NCBI GenBank assembly: GCA_020847075.1
Contig: JADLCS010000050.1
Location: 2,026-66,025, forward strand
Direction: 5' to 3'
Length of the DNA stretch: 64,000 bases
DNA from: Gammaproteobacteria bacterium
GTDB taxonomy: Bacteria; Pseudomonadota; Gammaproteobacteria; SZUA-140
Shown here: positions 31,002 through 44,011 of the stretch, piece after piece
Position numbering within the stretch: position 1 is the stretch's first letter
How the letters are laid out: every line of letters begins with the position of its first letter
The notes under the pieces: model-generated
What the model was told of the DNA's origin: nothing
Database searches by the model: none
The model's input: the letters and a program-made list of their open reading frames with translations, nothing else
Translations under genes and position numbers: made by a program

Positions 31002-32780
31002 TCAATACACCCTGGGTTGCGGCGGAAACGGCTCCACCGTCCGCGGCTTCATGCGCACCGGCTTGTAATCCAGCGCGCCGCCGTCCCTGAAATACAAGGA
31101 ATGCTTCAGCCAGTGCTCGTCGTCGCGCCGGGGGTAATCGATGCGCGAATGGGCGCCCCGACTCTCCCGGCGCGCCAGCGCCGAACTCACCGCGGCCAGT
31201 GCCACGTCCATCAGGTTTTCCAGCTCCAGCGCCTCGATGCGGGCGGTATTGAAGACGCGGCTGCGGTCGCTCAGGGTGACCTGCTGCAATCTCCGTTCCA
31301 GCTCGCGCACCTCGAGGACACCCTGTTGCAGCACCTCCTCGGTGCGGAACACCCCGCAATGCCGTTCCATGACGCGTTGCAGCTCCGACCGCAAGCCACT
31401 CACCGTCTCGCCGCCGCGCCGTTCGTCCCAACGTGCCAACCGGGCGAGCGGTTGCTCGATCGACTCCGGATCGAGCGGACGGTGATAACGCGCCTCCTTC
31501 AGATACTCGATGATGTGATTGCCCGCCGCGCGGCCGAACACCACGATGTCGAGCAGCGAGTTGCCGCCGAGGCGGTTGGCGCCGTGCACCGATACGCAAG
31601 CGCACTCCCCCACCGCGTACAGACCGATCACGGGCTCCTCGGGGCCCTGCCGTTCCGGCGCCACCACCTGCCCGAAACGATTGGTCGGGATGCCCCCCAT
31701 CGTATAGTGGCAGGTCGGAAACACCGGTACGGGCGCCGTCACCGGATCGATGCGCAGGAAGGTCCCGACCATGGACTGGATACCGGGCAGGCGCTGGTGG
31801 ATCACGTCGGCGCCGAGGTGTTCGAGCCTGAGCAGGACATGGTCGCCTTCTGGCCCGCAGCCGCGCCCCTCGCGGACCTCGGTCGCGATCGCCCGGCTCA
31901 CCACGTCGCGGCTGGCGAGATCCTTCGCGTGCGGCGCGTAGCGCTCCATGAAGCGCTCGCCCTCGCGGTTGACGAGATAGCCGCCCTCGCCGCGCGCGGC
32001 CTCGGAGATCAGCATGCCCTTGCCAGCGATGCCGGTCGGATGGAACTGGACGAACTCCATGTCCTGCAGCGGGATACCGGCGCGCAGCGCCATCGCCATG
32101 CCGTCACCGGTGTTGATGTGCGCATTCGTATTGGTGCGGTAGAGCTGTCCGGCGCCGCCGGTCGCGAGCAGCGTCGTCTTGGCCTCGATCACCAGCGGTT
32201 CGCCGGTCTCGATACACAACACCAGCGCGCCGAGGATATAACCCTCGCGATCCTTGAGCAGATCGAGGGCGAAATACTCGTCGAAGAAATGCGTCCTGGC
32301 GCGGATGTTCTGCTGATAGAGCGCGTGCAGGATGGCGTGGCCGGTGCGATCCGCGGCGGCGCAGGTGCGCGCGGCCTGCTCGCCGCCGAAGTTCTGGCTC
32401 TGGCCGCCGAAGGGGCGCTGATAGATCTTACCGTTGTCCAGACGCGAGAACGGCACGCCGAAGTGTTCCAGTTCGATCACCAGCCGCGCGGCCGCGCGAC
32501 ACATGTACTCGATGGCGTCCTGGTCACCCAGCCAGTCGCCGCCCTTGACGGTATCGTACATATGCCAGTGCCAGTTGTCGGGCAGCACATTGGCGAGCGC
32601 TGCGTTCATCCCGCCCTGGGCGGCGACGGTATGGGAACGCGTCGGAAAGACCTTGGAGACTACCGCCACCGAGGCATCCGCCTGCGCCAGTTGCAGCGCG
32701 GCGCGCAGGCCGCCCCCGCCCGCGCCGATGACCAGGGTATCGAAGCGGCGGCGTTCCACCTCCTGGCCTCGGGCGTTCAT
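31002..32780 (-). CDS. sdhA: Succinate dehydrogenase flavoprotein subunit
   Basis: FDTLVIGAGGGGLRAAL...SHTVAAQGG... (His for covalent FAD). 592 aa from the ATG at 32780. Confidence 0.95.
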   Translation of the reverse strand: MNARGQEVERRRFDTLVIGAGGGGLRAALQLAQADASVAVVSKVFPTRSHTVAAQGGMNAALANVLPDNWHWHMYDTVKGGDWLGDQDAIEYMCRAAARLVIELEHFGVPFSRLDNGKIYQRPFGGQSQNFGGEQAARTCAAADRTGHAILHALYQQNIRARTHFFDEYFALDLLKDREGYILGALVLCIETGEPLVIEAKTTLLATGGAGQLYRTNTNAHINTGDGMAMALRAGIPLQDMEFVQFHPTGIAGKGMLISEAARGEGGYLVNREGERFMERYAPHAKDLASRDVVSRAIATEVREGRGCGPEGDHVLLRLEHLGADVIHQRLPGIQSMVGTFLRIDPVTAPVPVFPTCHYTMGGIPTNRFGQVVAPERQGPEEPVIGLYAVGECACVSVHGANRLGGNSLLDIVVFGRAAGNHIIEYLKEARYHRPLDPESIEQPLARLARWDERRGGETVSGLRSELQRVMERHCGVFRTEEVLQQGVLEVRELERRLQQVTLSDRSRVFNTARIEALELENLMDVALAAVSSALARRESRGAHSRIDYPRRDDEHWLKHSLYFRDGGALDYKPVRMKPRTVEPFPPQPRVY

Positions 32781-36989: not shown

Positions 36990-37810
36990 TCAGGCCGTGA
37001 TCCGGGCAAATACTGCAGGCGGCTGGCTCCCTAGAGAACGGTGCGGCCGGACCTCATTGTAGTGGACGCGCCACGCCTCAATCGTCCTGCGAGCATCCCC
37101 CAAGTCATGGAACCAATGCAGATTAAGGCACTGATCCCGAAACTTCCCGTTGAAGCTCTCGACGAAGGCATTCTGCGTCGGCTTGCCGGGCTGAATAAAA
37201 TGTAATCTGACGCGGGTTCTCTGACTCAGAAGAACAGCGCTTTCCCTGTAAACTCAGGGCCATTGTCGCTGACGATCACCCGGGGCAGTCCCCGGCGGCT
37301 GGCGAGCTCATCGAGATAACGCGCAACCCGCGCTCCGGAGATCGAGACATCCACAATCTGCCCGACGCACTCGCGGGAATAGTCATCCACAATATTGAGA
37401 ACCCGAATCCGTCGGCCGCCCGCCAGCTGGTTGCTCACGAAGTCCATTGACCAGCGCTCGTTCAGCCGACCCGGGATGGTCATCGGAACCCGTGGCCTGG
37501 CCAGCTTCTTGCGGTGCTCGGTGCGCACCTGCAGGCCTTCCTCGCGGTAGAGCCGATATGTCCTCTTGCGATTCTGGACCAGTCCTTCGGCCTTGAGCAG
37601 GCCGTGCAAGGTCGGATAACCATACCTTGGATACTGCTCGGCCAGTGTCTTCAACCGGGTCCGCAGACACTCGTCACTGCGCCGGCACGAGGTGTACCGG
37701 TATACCGACCGGGGCACCCCCGCCAATCGACACGCCCGCCGCTCGGAAAGGCCTAGCGTCACCATCAGATGATCTGCCGCCTTCCTGCGCACGGCAGGCG
37801 TTACCATTTT
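36990..37810 (-). pseudogene. IS3 transposase OrfB (DDE integrase core), frameshifted
   Basis: LSERRACRLAGVPRSVYRY...WSMDFV...NIVDDYSRE...VSDNGPEFTGKAL, then a stop. The C-terminus HFIQPGKPTQNAFVESFNGKFRDQCLNLHWF...RPHRSLG continues in another frame, so an indel lies near 37226-37245. Confidence 0.85.
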
Positions 37811-38066
37811 CCCCGGGCGATCTCCTTCAGTGCCACGTTGTCGAGCAGACTGTCCGCGAGCAGACGCTTGAGCTTCGCATTCTCCTGCTCCAAGGCGCGC
37901 AATCGCTTGGCATCCGAGACCTCCAGACGCTGTACTTGGCCTTCCAGCGGTAGATCGACTGCTCACTCACCCCGTGACGTCTCGACAAATTCGGTACGGA
38001 GGCGCTAGCCTCATTCTCTTTCAGAATGCTGATGATCTTTTCTTCGGTGAACTGCTTGCGCTTCAT
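37801..38066 (-). pseudogene. IS3 transposase OrfA (HTH), frameshifted
   Basis: MKRKQFTEEKIISILKENEASASVPNLSRRHGVSEQSIYRWKAKY, then the frame is lost. The expected LEVSDAKRLRALEQENAKLKRLLADSLLDNVALKEIARGKW* is in the adjacent frame, so an indel lies near 37935. Confidence 0.8.
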
Positions 38067-38141
38067 CCTGGGACCCCCCCTCCAGCGTAATTATAAGGAA
38101 ATCCCACATCGATGATGGCCCGGATTACGGGGGTACGGTCA

Positions 38142-38216
38142 ATCTAAGCCAGCTTCTGCTGTGGCGAATAACAGTGCAGCCATCATGACTAGCACAGTGA
38201 TTAAATTGTATTTCAC
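38142..38216 (-). pseudogene. 5' stub of a second cassette ORF (signal-peptide-like), cut by the IS
   Basis: AGGGAG Shine-Dalgarno, then GTG at 38216: VKYNLITVLVMMAALLFATAEAGLD, which runs directly into the IS terminal repeat. Confidence 0.35.
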
Positions 38217-38235
38217 AGATATTCTCCCTATTGGC

Positions 38236-38299
38236 GCCTAACGACCGGCTTCAGGCGCGCGGCGCTTGCGCCGCGTCGCTCTGCAAGCCATAGTTAGCA
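38236..38299 (-). other. Integron attC recombination site
   Basis: The minus strand reads TGCTAAC(R'')-TAT-GGCTT[G]CAG[A]GCG[A]CGCGGC-loop-GCCGCGCGC-CTGAAGCC-GGTC-GTTAGGC(R'). It is an imperfect palindrome with three bulged bases. R' fits GTTRRRY. Confidence 0.7.
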
Positions 38300-39135
38300 C
38301 CTGCACTTGAATCTGCGGTTGGTGGGATTAGAAGGCAAGTCGGCCGAAGAAGGAGCAGATCCTCCCGAATCTCCTCATCAAGCGTCGCCATCGCCCCAAC
38401 CAATGAACCGTGAATCACATGATAACTGTCCAGCATCGAGTGTTCAGCCTTCTCAAGAAATACCCCCCCTTGAGAATCAGGAACCTTACCTTGATACCGA
38501 CCGAACAGGCGAAGGCTGCATAGGATCTGGCACTGCACCCATCGAAAGAATGCCCACTCAGGCGTAATTCTGTCGGGGCGAGGGGCATTTCGGGGAGCGT
38601 CCTCGTCCAAAAAGGAAGCGTAGATGCCCCTTATGAAATCTACATCTGTGGCGGTTCTCTGTCGGGCCTCCTTGATCGCGTTCGGAAACTCCTTCCACTC
38701 AATGCCGTTGATCTCAGGGAAAAACTGATGCACTATTGACCATCGCTCGATAAAACCACGCGTATCATCGCCAATTGTGCTTTTCCATTCCTCAAGATAC
38801 TGGAGCATTTGGCCATCGGGGATGAAAGATCCGTCCCGTAGTTTGTTACTGAATTGGAAAGCATCGTTCAACCGATGATCGACCACCGGCGTGCATGCGA
38901 TTTCCTGCTCTATCTCGAAGCGCAGAAGCGATCCGACGTTTGGTATAAGGTACACGGGGTTGGTTTTGTCAGGTAACTTCGAAAAGCAGCGCTGCTGACT
39001 TTCCGGTCGCGTTGTTATCAACTCGAAGAATAGTTCGTCGGATACCAATACGACATAATCTTCGCACAGCGCTCGCACAGCCTCAGTAGACGCTCCGTCG
39101 AGAAAGCTCTTATCCAATATAACGCTGATTTTCAT
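38251..39135 (-). CDS. Integron cassette ORF 2, unknown function (PIN-like N-terminus by motif only)
   Basis: 294-aa ORF with visibly lower G+C. Starts MKISVILDKSFLDGAS...VVLVSDELFFEL. Its last 15 codons lie inside the attC. It begins 18 nt after ORF 1. Confidence 0.7.
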   Translation of the reverse strand: MKISVILDKSFLDGASTEAVRALCEDYVVLVSDELFFELITTRPESQQRCFSKLPDKTNPVYLIPNVGSLLRFEIEQEIACTPVVDHRLNDAFQFSNKLRDGSFIPDGQMLQYLEEWKSTIGDDTRGFIERWSIVHQFFPEINGIEWKEFPNAIKEARQRTATDVDFIRGIYASFLDEDAPRNAPRPDRITPEWAFFRWVQCQILCSLRLFGRYQGKVPDSQGGVFLEKAEHSMLDSYHVIHGSLVGAMATLDEEIREDLLLLRPTCLLIPPTADSSAGANYGLQSDAAQAPRA

Positions 39136-39153
39136 GGGTCAGGTGTTACGCGG

Positions 39154-39681
39154 CTACATTCTCTTCCCAAAGCCATCGGTCTGATAGTGCCCAGCGCCAT
39201 AACAGTACACACAACTTTCTACTTCTCCTCTGCAGAAACAAACAACCGTATGTCTTTCATCTCTTCTTCTTTGTAGCTCCTCATCTGACATGGACACAGG
39301 GGCGGGCGTTGCTGCGCCAGAATCCGGTTTCGGTTCAGATTCCTGGTGGGTGGAAGCAATCTTCGCTGCAAGGGATTTGTTGTTTCTTATAAACTCAATC
39401 ACCCACTCGGTACTTATCAGTCTTCCCTTGTATTTGTCAGTCAACTCCGATGTCCGATGCCGGTATAGCTTGTAATGGTTCCACGGACGCGGGTCAAGTC
39501 CAGACCAACTTGCTTCAACTTCAAGTAGCACTCGCGTCCTAACACCCTTAGGGCAAATCTTTAGGAGCCGTCCGTCGGGCCAATATTCGTCTCCTTGGTA
39601 ATGGGCTTTGGAGCCAATGATAAAGGCTTCCATACCATTCTCCTCGGCAATTGTGCGAACTGTTTCTAGGAGTTTTTCCAT
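39154..39681 (-). CDS. Integron cassette ORF 1, unknown function (C-terminal CxxCxGxG zinc-ribbon motif)
   Basis: 175-aa ORF with lower G+C. C-terminal VVCFCRGEVESCVYCYGAGHY. An alternative start at 39633 (MEAFIIGS) has a GAGGAG Shine-Dalgarno. Confidence 0.7.
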   Translation of the reverse strand: MEKLLETVRTIAEENGMEAFIIGSKAHYQGDEYWPDGRLLKICPKGVRTRVLLEVEASWSGLDPRPWNHYKLYRHRTSELTDKYKGRLISTEWVIEFIRNNKSLAAKIASTHQESEPKPDSGAATPAPVSMSDEELQRRRDERHTVVCFCRGEVESCVYCYGAGHYQTDGFGKRM

Positions 39682-39685
39682 ATCA

Positions 39686-39798
39686 TGCTAACAGTTAATT
39701 AGACGGAGTCGGTGATATTGGTGATAGGCGGATTCTATGTAGCATCGGCATGCCTCCCCTCTTCGCCCGATTTCCAGTAGGATACCCTTAACCCTTTC
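39686..39798 (-). other. attI region with the attI/cassette junction GTTAGCA
   Basis: The 117-bp intI-cassette spacer. The minus strand has AACTGTTAGCATGAT immediately before the first cassette ATG. GTTAGCA (39692-39686) is the exact reverse complement of the attC R''. Confidence 0.5.
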
Positions 39799-41211
39799 AT
39801 GGATGAAAGCCGAGGTGTCGTCATGGATGATGATCAGCGCGCCGCCTGTGAACGGCGGTTTTGGGCCCGTTATGCAAATATCATTATTGGTCAAGGCATT
39901 AAACCTTCTCTGGTACGCTGGCACGTGCTGCGGGCGAAGTCTTTCATCAAGACCTTTCCGGGCAGGCGTCTGGCCGATCTCGGGCCGGACGACGTCGCCG
40001 CCTATCTGACCCAGGCAGGCCGTCAGCAGACGGTGGAGCCCTGGCAATTCCGGCAAATCGTCGATGCTATACAGATTCTGTATAGCATTGTTCGCACGGA
40101 ATGGGCGACAAGCTTCGACTGGGACTACTGGCGCGATTCCGCACAGGCGCTGGGCGCCCAGCATGCCACGACGGCGCGAGAGGTCACGCCGGTCACACCC
40201 GGGGAATTTGCCGAGCGGCTCGGAGATACACGCTTCGCGCCGCTGATCCGGGCACACCTGGAGTTATTCGCAACCGTCGCCGCCGTGATCCGCACACGGA
40301 ATCTGGCGTTCCGCACCGAGCAGACCTACATGAACTGGATGTGCCGCTTCATGATTCACCATGGCGGACGTTCACCGGCCGAGCTCGGCGGACCCGAGGT
40401 GGCGGAATTCCTCCAGCACTTAGCGGTCAGACGCAACGTCGCGGCAAGCACGCAGAATCAGGCGCTGAATGCGCTGGTGTTCCTCTATGATCAGGTACTG
40501 CAAAGGCCCTTGGGTGATATCGGCGCCTTTGTCCGCGCCAAACGATCCCGGCGCATCCCGACGGTCCTGACCCGCGCCGAGGTCGGGCGCATTCTGGCCG
40601 AGCTGCACGGCCTGCAGGAATTGATCGTTTCGCTGCTCTACGGGACCGGCATGCGTCTCATGGAAGGTCTGAGACTGCGGGTGCAGGATATCGACTTTGG
40701 CCGCAACCTGATCGTGGTCCGCCACGGGAAGGGCGACAAGGATCGCGTCGCGCCCCTTCCCGCCACCCTCGTCGCCGGGATCAAGGGGCACCTTGCAGAG
40801 GTCAGGGCCTTGCATGAGCGTGATGTTGCGGAAGGATTCGGCGAGGTTTTTCTGCCGCACGCGCTTGCGACGAAATATCCGAACGCCGCCCGGGAGTGGC
40901 GCTGGCAGTTCGTGTTTCCGAGCGGCCGGCTGTCAGTCGACCCGCGCAGCGGCAAGACGCGACGGCATCATCTTCACGAGAGCGCCGTCCAGAAGGCGGT
41001 TAAATCGGCAGCGCGGCGCGCAGGGATAGCAAAAAAGGTCGGCTGCCATACCCTGCGCCACAGTTTCGCGACGCATCTCCTAGAGCGAGGACAGGATATC
41101 CGCACCGTGCAGGAGCTGCTGGGACATGCGGATGTGTCCACGACAATGATCTACACCCACGTACTCAATCGTGGCGGTATGGGTGTGCTCAGCCCGCTCG
41201 ACGCAGACTGA
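39799..41211 (+). CDS. intI: Integron integrase IntI with an N-terminal extension of about 145 aa
   Basis: [20 protein letters not shown]...[15 protein letters not shown]; the Arg in [13 protein letters not shown]; the IntI-specific insertion [47 protein letters not shown]; and [12 protein letters not shown]...[22 protein letters not shown] (H-R-H-Y). Confidence 0.9.
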
Positions 41212-41348
41212 AGCTATCCCTGGCACGAGGCGCCGGTTCCCGGCGAATGGACAGGCCACGGTTTCGCCGATCCGGCGCGGCCATGCCTCTCCCGCTACGG
41301 GATCACTCTGGCTGGCCAGTCCTTGACTGACGACAGATGCCGCAGCCC

Positions 41349-42848
41349 CTACTCCGGCTTCATATGCGGAAACAGCAGCACGTCGCGGATGGAGGGCGAG
41401 TCGGTGAACAGCATCACCAGGCGGTCGATGCCGATGCCTTCGCCTGCGGTGGGCGGCATGCCGTGTTCGAGGGCGCGGATGTAGTCGGCGTCGAACAGCA
41501 TCGCCTCCTCGTCGCCGGCCTCGCGCGCGCGCAACTGGTCCCGGAAGCGTTCCGCCTGGTCCTCGGCGTCGTTCAGCTCGGTGAAGCCGTTGGCGATCTC
41601 GCGCCCGCCGATGAACAGTTCGAAGCGGTCGGTCACGTCCGGATCGGCGTCGTTGCGCCGCGCGAGCGGCGACACCTCGGTGGGATACGAGGTGATGAAG
41701 GTCGGCTCGTGCAGGCGCGACTCCACCGTCTGCTCGAACAGTTCGAGCTGCAGCTTGCCAAGGCCGTAATCGTCCTTCGCCGCGATACCGCGCGCGGCCA
41801 GCAGCGCGCGCAGCCTTCCCGGATCACGCAGATCGTCCGCCGTGATATCCGGGTTGTAGTGCAGGATCGCCTCCGGCAGCGTCAGGCGGCGGAACGGGCG
41901 GCCGAAATCGAACTCCGCCCCCTGGTACGTGAACGCGGTCGCGCCGAACACGTGCAGACTCAGGCCGCGCAGCATCTCCTCGGTCAGGTCCATCAGGTCG
42001 TTGTAGTCCGCGTAGGCCTGATAGAACTCGAGCATGGTGAACTCGGGGTTGTGGCGCGTCGACAGGCCCTCGTTGCGGAAATTGCGGTTGATCTCGAACA
42101 CACGTTCGAAGCCGCCGACCACCAGGCGCTTCAGGTACAGCTCCGGCGCGATGCGCAGATAGAGCGGGATATCGAGCGCGTTGTGATGCGTCTTGAACGG
42201 GCGCGCGGTGGCGCCGCCGGCGATGACTTGCATCATCGGGGTCTCGACCTCGAGGAAGGCGCGCTCGCTGAGGAAGCGGCGGATGTAATCGACGATGGCG
42301 CTGCGCACGCGGAAGGTGCGCCGGGCGACGTCGTTCATGATCAGGTCGAGATAGCGCTGGCGGTAGCGCGCCTCCTGATCGACGAGGCCATGGTATTTGT
42401 CGGGCAGCGGGCGCAGGGCCTTGGTCAGCAGCCGGACGCGGTCGACCTTCACCGACAACTCGCCGGTCTTGGTCCGGAACAGCGCGCCCTCGGCGCCGAG
42501 GATGTCGCCGATGTCCCAGCGCTTGAACTCCTCGAACGCCTCGAGCCCGACGGTGTCGCGCTGGACGTAGAGCTGGATCTGGCCCGACATGTCCTGCAGG
42601 TGCGCGAAGGCCGCCTTGCCCATCAGGCGGCGCGTCATCATGCGGCCGGCCACGCTCACCCGCCGCACGTCGCGCTCCAGCGCCTCCGCGTCGGCCGAGG
42701 CGTACTCGGCATGCAACTCGCCAGCCACCACGTTGCGGCGAAAGTCGGTTGGGAAGGCATTGCCGCGCGCGCGCAGGGCGGCGAGCTTCTCGCGCCGCTG
42801 CGCGACCTGTTCCTGTTCATCCTGCGGACGGTCGTCGTCGGATTGCAT
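41349..42848 (-). CDS. lysS: Lysine--tRNA ligase (class II)
   Basis: ...[10 protein letters not shown]...GGATARPF...[23 protein letters not shown]...[20 protein letters not shown] Shine-Dalgarno before the ATG at 42848. Confidence 0.95.
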
Positions 42849-42865
42849 ATCTCTCCTCGAAACCG

Positions 42866-42915
42866 AAAAACCGGGGACAGACCCCGTTTTCCGGCGTAAA
42901 GGGGTCTGACCCCTA
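42866..42915. repeat. Two GGGGnCAGACCCC-type hairpins between prfB and lysS
   Basis: AAAAACCGGGGACAGACCCCGTTTT (42866-42890) and TAAAGGGGTCTGACCCCTA (42897-42915). Confidence 0.6.
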
Positions 42916-44011
42916 TAAGCCCTGCTTGAGGCTGGCCTCGATGAAGGTGTCCAACTCGCCGTCGAGCACCGCCTGCGTGTTGCCGGTCTCGATGCCGGTG
43001 CGCAGATCCTTGATGCGCGACTGGTCGAGTACATAGGACCGGATCTGGTTGCCCCAACCGATGTCGCTCTTGCTGTCCTCCAGCGCCTGTTTCGCCGCGC
43101 TGCGCGCGTTCAGCTCCCGCTCGTAGAGCTTCGCCTTGAGCTGTTTCATCGCGGTGGAGCGGTTCTTGTGCTGCGAGCGGTCGCTCTGGCACGCCACCAC
43201 GATGCCGCTGGGGACATGGGTGATGCGGATCGCCGATTCGGTGCGGTTGACGTGCTGCCCGCCCGCCCCGCTCGCGCGATAGGTATCGACCTTGAGGTCG
43301 GCCGGATTGATGTCGATCTCGATGTCGTCGTCCACCTCCGGCGAGGCGAACACCGCGGCGAACGAGGTATGGCGGCGGTTGCCGGAGTCGAACGGCGACT
43401 TGCGGACCAGGCGATGCACGCCGGTCTCGGTGCGCAGCCAGCCGTAGGCGTATTCCCCGTCGAACTTCACCGTGGCGCTCTTGATGCCCGCCACCTCGCC
43501 CGGCGAGACCTCGATCAGCTCGGTCTGGAAGCCGTGCGCCTCGCCCCAGCGCAGATACATGCGCAGCAGCATCTCGGCCCAGTCCTGCGCCTCGGTGCCG
43601 CCGGAGCCCGCCTGGATATCCAGGAAGGCGTTGCTGGCGTCCATCTCGCCCGAGAACATGCGGCGGAACTCCATCGCGGCCAGCCGGCCCTCGATCTCGT
43701 CCAGGTCCGCGATCACCGCGTCGGCGGCGCTCGCGTCGCCCTCCTCGTCGGCCAGTTCGAGCAGCTCGCGCGCCTCGTTCAGGCGGTCCTCGATCCCGGT
43801 GCAGCCGCCGACCGTCTCCTGCAGCCGCACCCGCTCGCGGCCCAGTTCCTGGGCCCGCTGCGGGTTGCCCCACACCGCCGGGTCCTCCAGCTCGCGTCCG
43901 ACTTCGATCAATCGCTCCCGCTTGTCGGCGAGGTCAAAGATACCTCCCCAGATCGGCGAGGCGACCCTGCATGTCCTTGATGCGCGTGAATACGAGATTG
44001 AGTTCGAGCAT
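42913..44011 (-). CDS. prfB: Peptide chain release factor 2 (programmed +1 frameshift)
   Basis: ATG at 44011 gives [25 protein letters not shown], then an in-frame TGA. The +1 frame continues [19 protein letters not shown]...[19 protein letters not shown] (GGQ motif) to the stop at 42913. Confidence 0.95.
43933..43950 (-). promoter_or_regulatory. RF2 recoding site
   Basis: The minus strand reads GGGGAGG-TAT-CTT-TGA-C: an SD-like element 3 nt upstream of the CUU UGA C slippery/stop context. Confidence 0.85.

Follow-up and report, generated by a model that had tools for sequence, protein, structure and literature searches.

Fused gene cassettes form a known but rare class in integrons. One example is gcu14-blaGES-1/aacA4 from a class 1 integron of Pseudomonas aeruginosa, for which circle excision and a single mRNA were examined by inverse PCR and RT-PCR (PMC4670013). 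In that cassette, two complete coding regions came to share one unit after the first attC was lost or truncated, and the outcome was block mobilisation, one transcript and a permanent, operon-like array of otherwise independent cassettes. Two small genes per cassette are also carried by Sucellos (sclAB) and Toutatis (tutAB) of the Vibrio cholerae chromosomal integron, where every occurrence keeps the two genes together (61 of 61 for Toutatis) and phage tests were made (bioRxiv 10.1101/2024.07.02.601686). The two-ORF cassette described here lies in a 64,000-nucleotide stretch of gammaproteobacterial DNA (hereafter the window) and resembles gcu14-blaGES-1/aacA4 in layout. It differs in its setting, a chromosomal, non-class-1 integron of an environmental bacterium, in that both functions are unassigned, and in that no more than 18 nt of its first attC would be left, in place of a truncated site. 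It resembles Sucellos and Toutatis in gene number, but its two genes are paired in one lineage only and form solitary cassettes elsewhere. We consider it likely that the locus is a fused integron cassette, derived from two ancestrally independent single-gene cassettes of which the upstream one (ORF1) lost its attC and left an 18-nt junction. The features of the locus are listed below.

39154 to 39681, minus strand: ORF1, 175 aa, C-terminal end ...VVCFCRGEVESCVYCYGAGHYQTDGFGKRM
38251 to 39135, minus strand: ORF2, 294 aa, N-terminus MKISVILDKSFLDGAS...
39136 to 39153, minus strand: ORF1-ORF2 junction, 18 nt, sequence CCGCGTAACACCTGACCC
39686 to 39692, minus strand: core site GTTAGCA where attI meets the cassette, 4 nt 5' of the ORF1 ATG, by direct sequence reading
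38236 to 38299, minus strand: attC of the cassette, 64 nt, R'' TGCTAAC and R' GTTAGGC
39799 to 41211, plus strand: integron integrase intI, 470 aa, TIGR02249 (E 2.6e-141), Pfam Phage_integrase and Phage_int_SAM_4

The integrase gene is divergent from the cassette and adjoins its ORF1 side; the catalytic and SAM-like part of the protein covers residues 159-469 and is preceded by an N-terminal extension of about 158 aa. Folded as DNA, the attC forms a bulged hairpin of -24.7 kcal/mol (z -3.2), which none of 200 shuffles equalled; it is the only one that the attC scan of both strands returned in the 64 kb, so the integron holds a single cassette. Core sites were searched with a pattern relaxed from the strict GTTRRRY, and the cores of these integrons include GTTAGCC and GTTAGCA, which fall outside it. 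The preliminary description had proposed one cassette with two ORFs 18 nt apart and no attC between them, and the attC scan and the minus-strand coordinates agree with this: no attC was found between the ORFs on either strand, and the 18-nt spacer is too short for one. Joint mobilisation of ORF1 and ORF2, also proposed there, is predicted for the same reason. An attC hidden over the 3' end of ORF1 was considered and rejected, since both the R' core and an R''/R' hairpin are absent there. A simple sigma-70 scan gave no Pc-like match upstream of ORF1, promoter and terminator counts were no higher than in shuffled sequence, and an Rfam scan of positions 37000-41500 returned nothing relevant. A truncated IS3-family transposase follows directly after the integron.

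The minimal, one-cassette form of the integron and the transposase remnant behind it could indicate an assembly chimera or a pseudogenised remnant devoid of biological meaning, but an independent assembly from another run (L018, SRR9827766) is 100% identical over 2967 nt spanning intI, ORF1, the junction and ORF2, and both ORFs are intact, full length against their homologs and keep all invariant residues. The chimera was rejected through this identical contig, and we regard the explanation as a whole as scarcely credible.

The fused-cassette reading is drawn because each family elsewhere occupies its own cassette, apart from the other. For ORF2, at least 80 non-redundant loci were recovered, with named source MAGs that include Gamma-, Beta- and Deltaproteobacteria, Ignavibacteriae, Tectomicrobia, Acidobacteriaceae and Binataceae, and an ORF1-family gene was present at 0 of 99 other ORF2-family loci (80 of them non-redundant; 600 nt or more of upstream sequence at 56). 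The pentamer GTTAG stands 3-30 nt 5' of the start codon at 42 of 96 loci, compared with 2/90, 2/82, 0/99 and 0/98 in control windows; given an attC core at this distance before the start, the gene opens its own cassette. Leaders of ORF2 homologs read GTTAGC(A/C)-cccgccac-ATG, and a full attC hairpin lies directly upstream or downstream of the gene at 28 loci. In L004, L019 and L024, where the homologs are 73-75% identical to ORF2, the attC that follows is nearly identical to that of the window, and ORF2 with its attC forms a conserved unit. ORF2 cassettes outside the window hold ORF2 alone, with a leader of 3-25 nt and an attC straight after or over the stop codon, an arrangement that leaves no room for an antitoxin. 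A conserved neighbour was also considered for ORF2 and rejected, as no neighbour family recurs beyond duplicate contigs.

The ORF1 family gives the complementary picture. A tblastn search of all fetched loci with 21 ORF1-family queries matched only L001-3, L104-112 and L018, the window's 100% twin, and a search with 45 ORF2-family queries found an ORF2-family gene at 0 of the 12 other ORF1-family loci; a metagenome scan with the ORF1 alignment A1 returned zero loci. Among loci with readable flanks, the ORF1 homologs of L001, L002 and L003 are followed by an attC that starts 4-7 nt past the stop codon, where CGCTAACAA, the start of the attC R'' box, is found, and L104 and L105 are single-gene cassettes of the ORF1 family with an attC at both sides. 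The order in L001 is an intI remnant, attI, the ORF1 homolog, an attC and an unrelated membrane-protein cassette, so that the homolog sits beside the integrase remnant, placed as in the window (GTTAGCGAT before the ATG). The window locus thus combines intI and an attI-side core, a 3' attC hairpin and two complete ORFs per attC with ORF families that each form, elsewhere, an independent cassette with its own attC.

We propose that the ORF1 and ORF2 cassettes became neighbours at the first position of a small chromosomal integron and that the attC of the ORF1 cassette was then lost, leaving the 18-nt junction. A single degenerate core-like heptamer, GTAACAC, is present in the junction, a hairpin is not, and the sequence aligns both to the post-stop sequence of ORF1 homologs and to the leader of ORF2 homologs. 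Because the 18 nt are short and the reading depends on a dozen matching bases, we only infer that the junction is a remnant of the lost ORF1 attC joined to the leader of the ORF2 cassette. After fusion, the integrase would move both genes only as one unit, from the attI-side core to the ORF2 attC, and the two would probably be co-transcribed from the integron platform. Their linkage would then be an accident of cassette architecture and not a sign of joint work, and a functional interaction may possibly have been gained after the fusion.

The preliminary description had flagged the pair as the window's best candidate for an undescribed defence or toxin-antitoxin (TA) system. In such a true two-gene module, the effector would be ORF2, as a nuclease of PIN-like type, with ORF1 as its zinc-knuckle antitoxin, sensor or regulator. 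The genes do lie on the same strand, 18 nt apart, in one cassette at what is predicted to be the best-expressed first position, the acidic pattern of ORF2 is PIN-like (a D following strand 1, an E within the helix behind strand 2 and (T/S)xD past strand 4), and TA and defence genes are over-represented among integron cassettes (bioRxiv 10.1101/2024.07.02.601686). Yet the two families were apart at the 99 other ORF2 loci and the 12 other ORF1 loci and occur together only in the window and its identical twin contig, whereas accepted two-gene cassette systems always co-localise, as Toutatis does in 61 of 61 occurrences (bioRxiv 10.1101/2024.07.02.601686). The preliminary description had itself named a lack of co-occurrence as refuting, and on that criterion the inference of a functional pair is refuted. 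ORF2 cassettes elsewhere offer no space for an antitoxin, PADLOC gave no match, no PIN, HTH, RHH or AbrB domain was found, and comparison with PIN by hhalign reached a probability of 0.1%. Type II TA pairs are recognised by conservation of the pair across genomes and by a toxin fold next to an antitoxin DNA-binding domain, and neither was seen for ORF1 and ORF2.

Some room for partners is left on the ORF1 side. Upstream of the ORF1 homolog in L002 and L003, at a distance of 27-38 nt, is another small gene, and no attC was detected in the gap; because of these close upstream genes ORF1 may tolerate or favour partners. The L003 upstream protein carries RNNLVH, a HEPN-like motif (Pfam HEPN_RiboL-PSP only at E 0.089), and with one such Rx4H protein among the upstream genes, the ORF1 family could in principle pair with varied RNase-like partners within a two-gene module. 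Against this, the upstream proteins of L002 and L003 share no relationship with each other or with ORF2, and a conserved upstream partner was rejected as the two do not match. Taken with the failure of the pair to co-occur, this makes a two-gene TA or anti-phage module improbable to a marked degree in our assessment. ORF1 and ORF2 look like two unrelated orphan cassettes that were joined, and not like a new two-gene defence or TA system.

ORF1 is a small protein separate from ORF2. Homologs conserve residues 1-16, so that its true start is that of the 175-aa version, not that of the 159-aa call found in public data. The layout given in the preliminary description was reproduced by the structure model, in which a small N-terminal alpha/beta domain (1-111) is followed by a disordered Pro/Ser/Ala linker (113-128, pLDDT<50) and then by the Cys cluster. 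The CxxCxGxG motif reported there is real (C157-G164) and belongs to a C-terminal Cys4 zinc knuckle, C148-x-C150-x6-C157-x2-C160-x-G162-x-G164. An exhaustive search assembled 124 representatives of the family, 13 of them at E<=1e-30 with a nearly full-length match. ORF1 had no match in Pfam, NCBIfam, PADLOC, PHROGs or a PDB sequence search, and its model had none at E<=0.001 in Foldseek against the PDB. Scans of 21 ORF1-family and 45 ORF2-family members against Pfam, NCBIfam, PADLOC and PHROGs likewise gave nothing usable.

With its one CxxCxGxG unit and a CxC pair, ORF1 resembles the relatives of the DnaJ CR domain (the DnaJ central domain, BSD2 and anti-TRAP). It differs from DnaJ CR, which has four CxxCxGxG repeats, by its single Cys4 knuckle and by scores that are all below curated thresholds, and from DnaJ in having no J domain or other chaperone feature. 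The window protein itself gives no match to the DnaJ CR domain PF00684; within the family the lowest E-value is 0.0013, and P0106 obtains 16.2 bits where the cut-off is 32.7. The C-terminus also has weak, sub-threshold matches to BSD2 (E 0.33) and anti-TRAP (E 1.7), and PDB sequence-profile searches with alignments A2 and A3 otherwise yielded sub-threshold noise. The CxC..CxxCxGxG knuckle is a mobile module that is also found on proteins with unrelated N-terminal parts, and this shuffling among unrelated proteins suggests a binding or docking role for it in ORF1.

ORF2 is modelled with confidence (AlphaFold2 pLDDT 89.3, pTM 0.87) as an alpha/beta core with strands at 4-7, 28-32, 62-64 and 248-250, which is split by a helical insert of about 160 residues (84-246). 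Conserved residues are D8, D13, E38, E74, E231, H232, D236, T/S251 and D/E253; E38, E74 and D236 are invariant, position 253 is always D or E, and D8 is kept in 44 of 45 sequences. In the model, the residues of this acidic and histidine cluster are placed on adjoining helices and at the ends of strands or shortly past them. The last 16 or so codons are read out of the attC, and the tail (276-294) is disordered in the model (pLDDT<50). None of the 87 homologs is named. Searches of ORF2 in Pfam, NCBIfam, PADLOC, PHROGs and PDB sequences gave no match, Foldseek of its model against the PDB and BFVD gave none at E<=0.001, and family scans of 8 divergent relatives gave nothing usable. The preliminary description could name no family for either protein, and across these resources neither belongs to a named one. 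As for defence systems in particular, the PADLOC check which had been suggested assigned no family to either ORF (PADLOC-DB v2 models, E<=1). Pfam and NCBIfam searches of both proteins and their family members found no HTH, RHH, AbrB or Phd antitoxin domain and no recognisable toxin fold.

The proposed PIN-like nature of ORF2 was tested on sequence and structure. The order of elements (strand, two helices, strand, two helices, strand ... strand, helix, strand) resembles that of PIN nucleases such as VapC and FitB, and so does the location of the conserved residues, where D8 closes strand 1, E38 sits in the helix that follows strand 2, and T/S251-x-D/E253 comes behind strand 4. D8, E38 and D/E253 would correspond to PIN acidic residues 1, 2 and 4, and the third is ambiguous (E74 or D236). 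Unlike PIN proteins, ORF2 has its helical insert of about 160 residues in place of the short PIN helical region, and unlike VapC it is twice the size and has no adjacent antitoxin. PIN HMMs, the fold search and hhalign all failed: PIN families were found neither at E<=10 in 45 family members nor at E<=5 in 8 divergent members, and Foldseek comparison of the model with the PDB and BFVD detected no PIN fold. The hhalign probability of 0.1% refers to the ORF2 alignment A2 against a VapC/FitB/PAE2754 alignment, and this test is weak. Only one VapC-like ORF was seen among the ORFs of the fetched loci. The apparent PIN likeness of ORF2 remains a motif-level resemblance only.

The modelled acidic cluster points, at low confidence, to a metal-dependent phosphoesterase or nuclease whose helical insert could be a recognition or regulatory module; HMM, profile-profile and fold comparisons all gave the nuclease idea no support. 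The usual ORF2 cassette carries no antitoxin gene, which makes a classical type II toxin an unlikely identity for ORF2, and the protein must act without a dedicated partner because the family is normally the sole occupant of its cassette. Another explanation is that ORF2 alone is an anti-phage or anti-mobile-element nuclease in a minimal cassette and ORF1 an unrelated passenger. The single-gene cassette found in many phyla and the conserved acidic cluster would fit, as would the non-integron copies near HipA/HTH, PARG and NTP_transf_8 genes (L020-23) or in an array of small unknown genes including CopG and DUF2283 (L114), and integron defence systems typically consist of one small gene (bioRxiv 10.1101/2024.07.02.601686). 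However, ORF2 shows no homology to any PADLOC model and no recognised nuclease fold, and its neighbourhoods are heterogeneous, some of them ordinary chromosomal ones (L113), so that we hold this explanation to be unlikely. Viral contigs scanned for both families contained neither, which was counted as neutral here.

More speculatively, and with considerable doubt on our part, the ORF2 family might be an undescribed stand-alone enzyme, with a fold that has no PDB or BFVD counterpart and a PIN-like acidic site, for example a single-protein anti-phage or anti-plasmid nuclease, spread through the integrons of many phyla as a one-gene cassette; bolder still, the fusion with ORF1 might be a new regulatory pairing in one lineage. 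The negative result on the two-gene module means that effort is not spent on a pair that is no unit, and it yields a practical rule: since fused cassettes mimic operons, a cassette with several genes deserves to be called a system only when those genes travel together across independent occurrences. Two orphan families have also been delimited. The zinc knuckle of ORF1, a shuffled C-terminal module, could be curated as a new domain, and the ORF2 family, a widespread one-gene cassette with a confident model that has no structural match, is a reasonable entry for cassette function screens.

ORF1 and ORF2, paired in the integron of the window, do not form a conserved two-gene system; their cassette most probably arose by fusion of members of two independent cassette families. 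The features on which the analysis draws are as follows.

41349-43034, minus strand: class II aminoacyl-tRNA synthetase, a flanking chromosomal gene
39799-41211, divergent from ORF1: integron integrase gene intI (TIGR02249, E 2.6e-141; Pfam Phage_integrase and Phage_int_SAM_4)
39686-39692, minus strand: core site GTTAGCA, 4 nt ahead of the ORF1 start codon
39154-39681, minus strand: ORF1, 175 aa
39136-39153, minus strand: ORF1-ORF2 spacer, exactly 18 nt
38251-39135, minus strand: ORF2, 294 aa
38236-38299, minus strand: attC, 64 nt, TGCTAAC...GTTAGGC
37827-38066, minus strand: IS3-family orfA (HTH_Tnp_1), transposase remnant
37226-37966, minus strand: IS3-family orfB (HTH_21 and rve, the latter cut at profile position 82/102)

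These coordinates confirm the preliminary description of two ORFs 18 nt apart in a single cassette bounded by GTTAGCA and the attC, with no attC between them. A custom scan for R''...R' pairs (the inverse core boxes at attC ends) folding as attC-like hairpins, run on both strands of the whole 64-kb window, returned this one real attC and a second match, a 148-nt stretch at 31434-31581 (both strands) far from the integron. Folded as single-stranded DNA, the attC gives a bulged hairpin at -24.7 kcal/mol, which 0 of 200 shuffles equaled (z = -3.2). The ORF2 stop codon falls within the attC, so the last ~16 residues are attC read-through, and this tail (276-294, pLDDT<50) is the sole long disordered segment of the ORF2 model. 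An assembly chimera was ruled out by L018, a contig assembled independently from another sequencing run, which matches the window at 100% identity for 2967 nt, from intI through ORF1 and the junction and across most of ORF2.

The integron of the window is intI plus one fused cassette and nothing more, followed downstream by an IS3-family transposase remnant and then ordinary chromosomal genes. The remnant (37226-38066, minus strand) lies ~170 nt past the attC, and the element may have truncated or replaced the remaining cassette array. The flanking genes are of chromosomal housekeeping types (class II aminoacyl-tRNA synthetase, 2OG-Fe(II) oxygenase, HDOD protein, and GCV_T-like protein). The IntI ORF has 470 aa, of which TIGR02249 matches residues 159-469 only, and Pfam places two Phage_int_SAM_4 stretches in it, the best at 156-239. 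The second stretch may fall in the N-terminal ~158 aa (39799-40270) as a duplicated SAM-like domain; alternatively, the true start could be internal. The intI gene call in L018 is 462 aa.

Co-occurrence of the two families was examined in 99 ORF2-family loci collected by a genome scan (14 loci), a metagenome scan (80 loci), and exact-protein look-ups; at 97% nucleotide identity, 80 of them are distinct, and 56 of these 80 have at least 600 nt upstream. Every locus was searched by tblastn with 21 ORF1-family sequences, and L018 excepted, none of the 99 held an ORF1 relative. Conversely, close homologs of ORF1 number only four, alongside remoter members of its family, and an ORF2 relative was found in 0 of 12 other ORF1-family loci (L001-L003 and L104-L112). 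Once duplicate contigs were set aside, no neighbor family recurred around the ORF2 homologs. This differs from Toutatis, an integron cassette recognized in the literature as a two-gene system, whose genes stand together in 61 of 61 occurrences (bioRxiv 10.1101/2024.07.02.601686). The co-occurrence in other integrons or defense islands that the preliminary description had named as its own check was thus not found, and the two-gene system it envisaged gives way to families that live apart, each normally as its own cassette.

For the ORF2 family, GTTAG lies 3-30 nt ahead of the start codon in 42 of 96 loci (as GTTAGCC, GTTAGCA, GTTAGGC, GTTAGCT, or GTTAGAC), against 2/90, 2/82, 0/99, and 0/98 in four control windows, and complete attC-like hairpins adjoin the gene directly upstream or downstream in 28 loci. 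The attC following the closest homologs (L004, L019, and L024; 73-75% protein identity) is nearly base-for-base that of the window, which marks ORF2 plus attC as a conserved mobile unit. The homolog in L019 also has a complete attC, ending GTTAGCA-cccgccac-ATG, immediately ahead of it. For ORF1, the homologs in L001, L002, and L003 carry CGCTAACAA, an attC start, 4-7 nt past the stop codon. The order in L001 is an intI remnant, attI, GTTAGCGAT abutting ATG, the ORF1 homolog, an 87-nt attC, and an unrelated membrane-protein cassette, while in L104 (Thiopseudomonas) and L105, attCs stand on both sides of more distant members. That the two families exist as independent cassettes is therefore a direct observation. 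The attC after the ORF1 homolog (L001:3039-3125) and that before the ORF2 homolog (L019:2036-2116) almost match in sequence type (..CTAACAAGCCCATCAAC...GGTTATGGGCGGCGTTAG..), suggesting that both families circulate in the same integron group.

That ORF1 and ORF2 form a true functional module appears highly improbable. In its favor, the ORF1 homologs of L002 and L003 follow another small gene after a gap of 27-38 nt in which no attC was detected, and the upstream protein of L003 carries an RNNLVH (Rx4H, HEPN-like) motif and matches HEPN_RiboL-PSP very weakly (E 0.089). However, the two upstream proteins (141-165 aa; L002:734-1231 and L003:659-1084) are unrelated to each other. These pairs may represent additional ORF1-family cassettes of the fused or two-gene kind; across three loci only, ORF1 cassettes could fuse often or ORF1 could serve different partners.

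The junction pattern is what a fused cassette, an already known kind of structure, looks like. The spacer reads TAG-CCGCGTAACACCTGACCC-ATG, and its 5' half is similar to the R'' start after ORF1 homologs (CGC-TAACA). In the opposite reading, GCG-TAACACCTGACCC and GCGTTAGCACCCGCCAC, the leader of L019, agree at 12 of 17 positions, with the distance to ATG kept. Since R'' and R' are inverse copies, the two readings are inseparable; under either, one degenerate core-like heptamer is left and the hairpin is gone. From these few bases, the spacer would be the vestige of a lost site, and two independent families would have been joined into one cassette.

Both proteins are indeed orphans matching no named family, and all 87 ORF2 homologs in the protein collection are unnamed. 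The AlphaFold2 model of ORF2 (45 sequences; pLDDT 89.3, pTM 0.87) runs from strand 4-7 through two helices, strand 28-32, two helices, strand 62-64, and a helix to a long helical region (84-246), strand 248-250, helix 254-263, and a short strand. All 45 sequences share E38, E74, and D236, and in all of them position 251 is T or S and position 253 is D or E; D8 occurs in 44, D13 in 42, and E231-H232 in 43. D8, E38, and T/S251-x-D/E253 are placed much as in a PIN site, and to this extent the earlier PIN-like reading holds, but no comparison by sequence, profile, or fold assigned ORF2 to the PIN domain. At permissive thresholds, no PIN-clan Pfam match arose in the 45 members or 8 divergent relatives; a profile search of PDB sequences gave nothing; Foldseek gave a best PDB E of 0.07 (TM 0.17) and a best BFVD E of 0.19, with PIN proteins absent from the top matches; and hhalign against a small VapC/FitB/PAE2754 alignment, a weak test, gave a probability of 0.1%. 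We read ORF2 as an uncharacterized alpha/beta protein with a large helical insert and a probable metal-binding acidic site, very tentatively a nuclease or phosphoesterase. A classical toxin needing an adjacent antitoxin is unlikely because the usual ORF2 cassette has no second gene. One homolog (P0010, 71% identical; L020-L023) lies outside a recognizable cassette near SRAP, NTP_transf_8, PARG-like, and HipA/HTH genes, in what looks like a toxin-antitoxin or defense-island neighborhood.

The ORF1 model is moderate (pLDDT 75). A small alpha/beta domain reaches residue ~111, residues 113-128 form a disordered linker, and the protein ends in a knuckle in which C148, C150, C157, C160, G162, and G164 are invariant or nearly so; Foldseek returned nothing for the model. 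An exhaustive profile search yielded 124 representative proteins, among which the N-terminal domain also occurred without the C-terminal module of ~45 residues (39154-39300; consensus ER.xV.C.C.GEVE.C..C.G.G.Y..DG.GN), and the module without the domain. The N-terminal parts that the module follows are unrelated: it ends proteins that combine a long coiled coil with a small 'MNF..A.EIAR.NPG' N-domain differing from that of ORF1, one HNH-like protein, and minimal proteins of 54-66 aa (noted proteins: P0116, P0128, P0132, P0134, P0146, P0147, P0165, P0169, P0173, P0186, and P0204). No Pfam family covers it, and zinc fingers of the DnaJ CR type (PF00684, BSD2, and anti-TRAP) matched only below threshold. 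We regard it as a mobile, predicted zinc-knuckle domain. Distant ORF1-family genes occupy varied contexts (including L106/L107:1320-3890 and L108/L109:4664-6193), among them cassette arrays. In Cycloclasticus, they lie ~110 nt downstream of a CTD12/MC6-8/DUF2326 set, which we take to be an ABC-3C-type conflict-system architecture; others, in an integrase/AlpA island, precede an HSP70/MreB-like gene by ~160 nt, a placement of note given the DnaJ-like zinc motif.

As the pair is not a conserved two-gene system, interest in it is low. What remains of interest is the ORF2 family, which is widespread as a one-gene cassette and whose confident model lacks a structural match, and, to a lesser degree, the shuffled zinc-knuckle module of ORF1.
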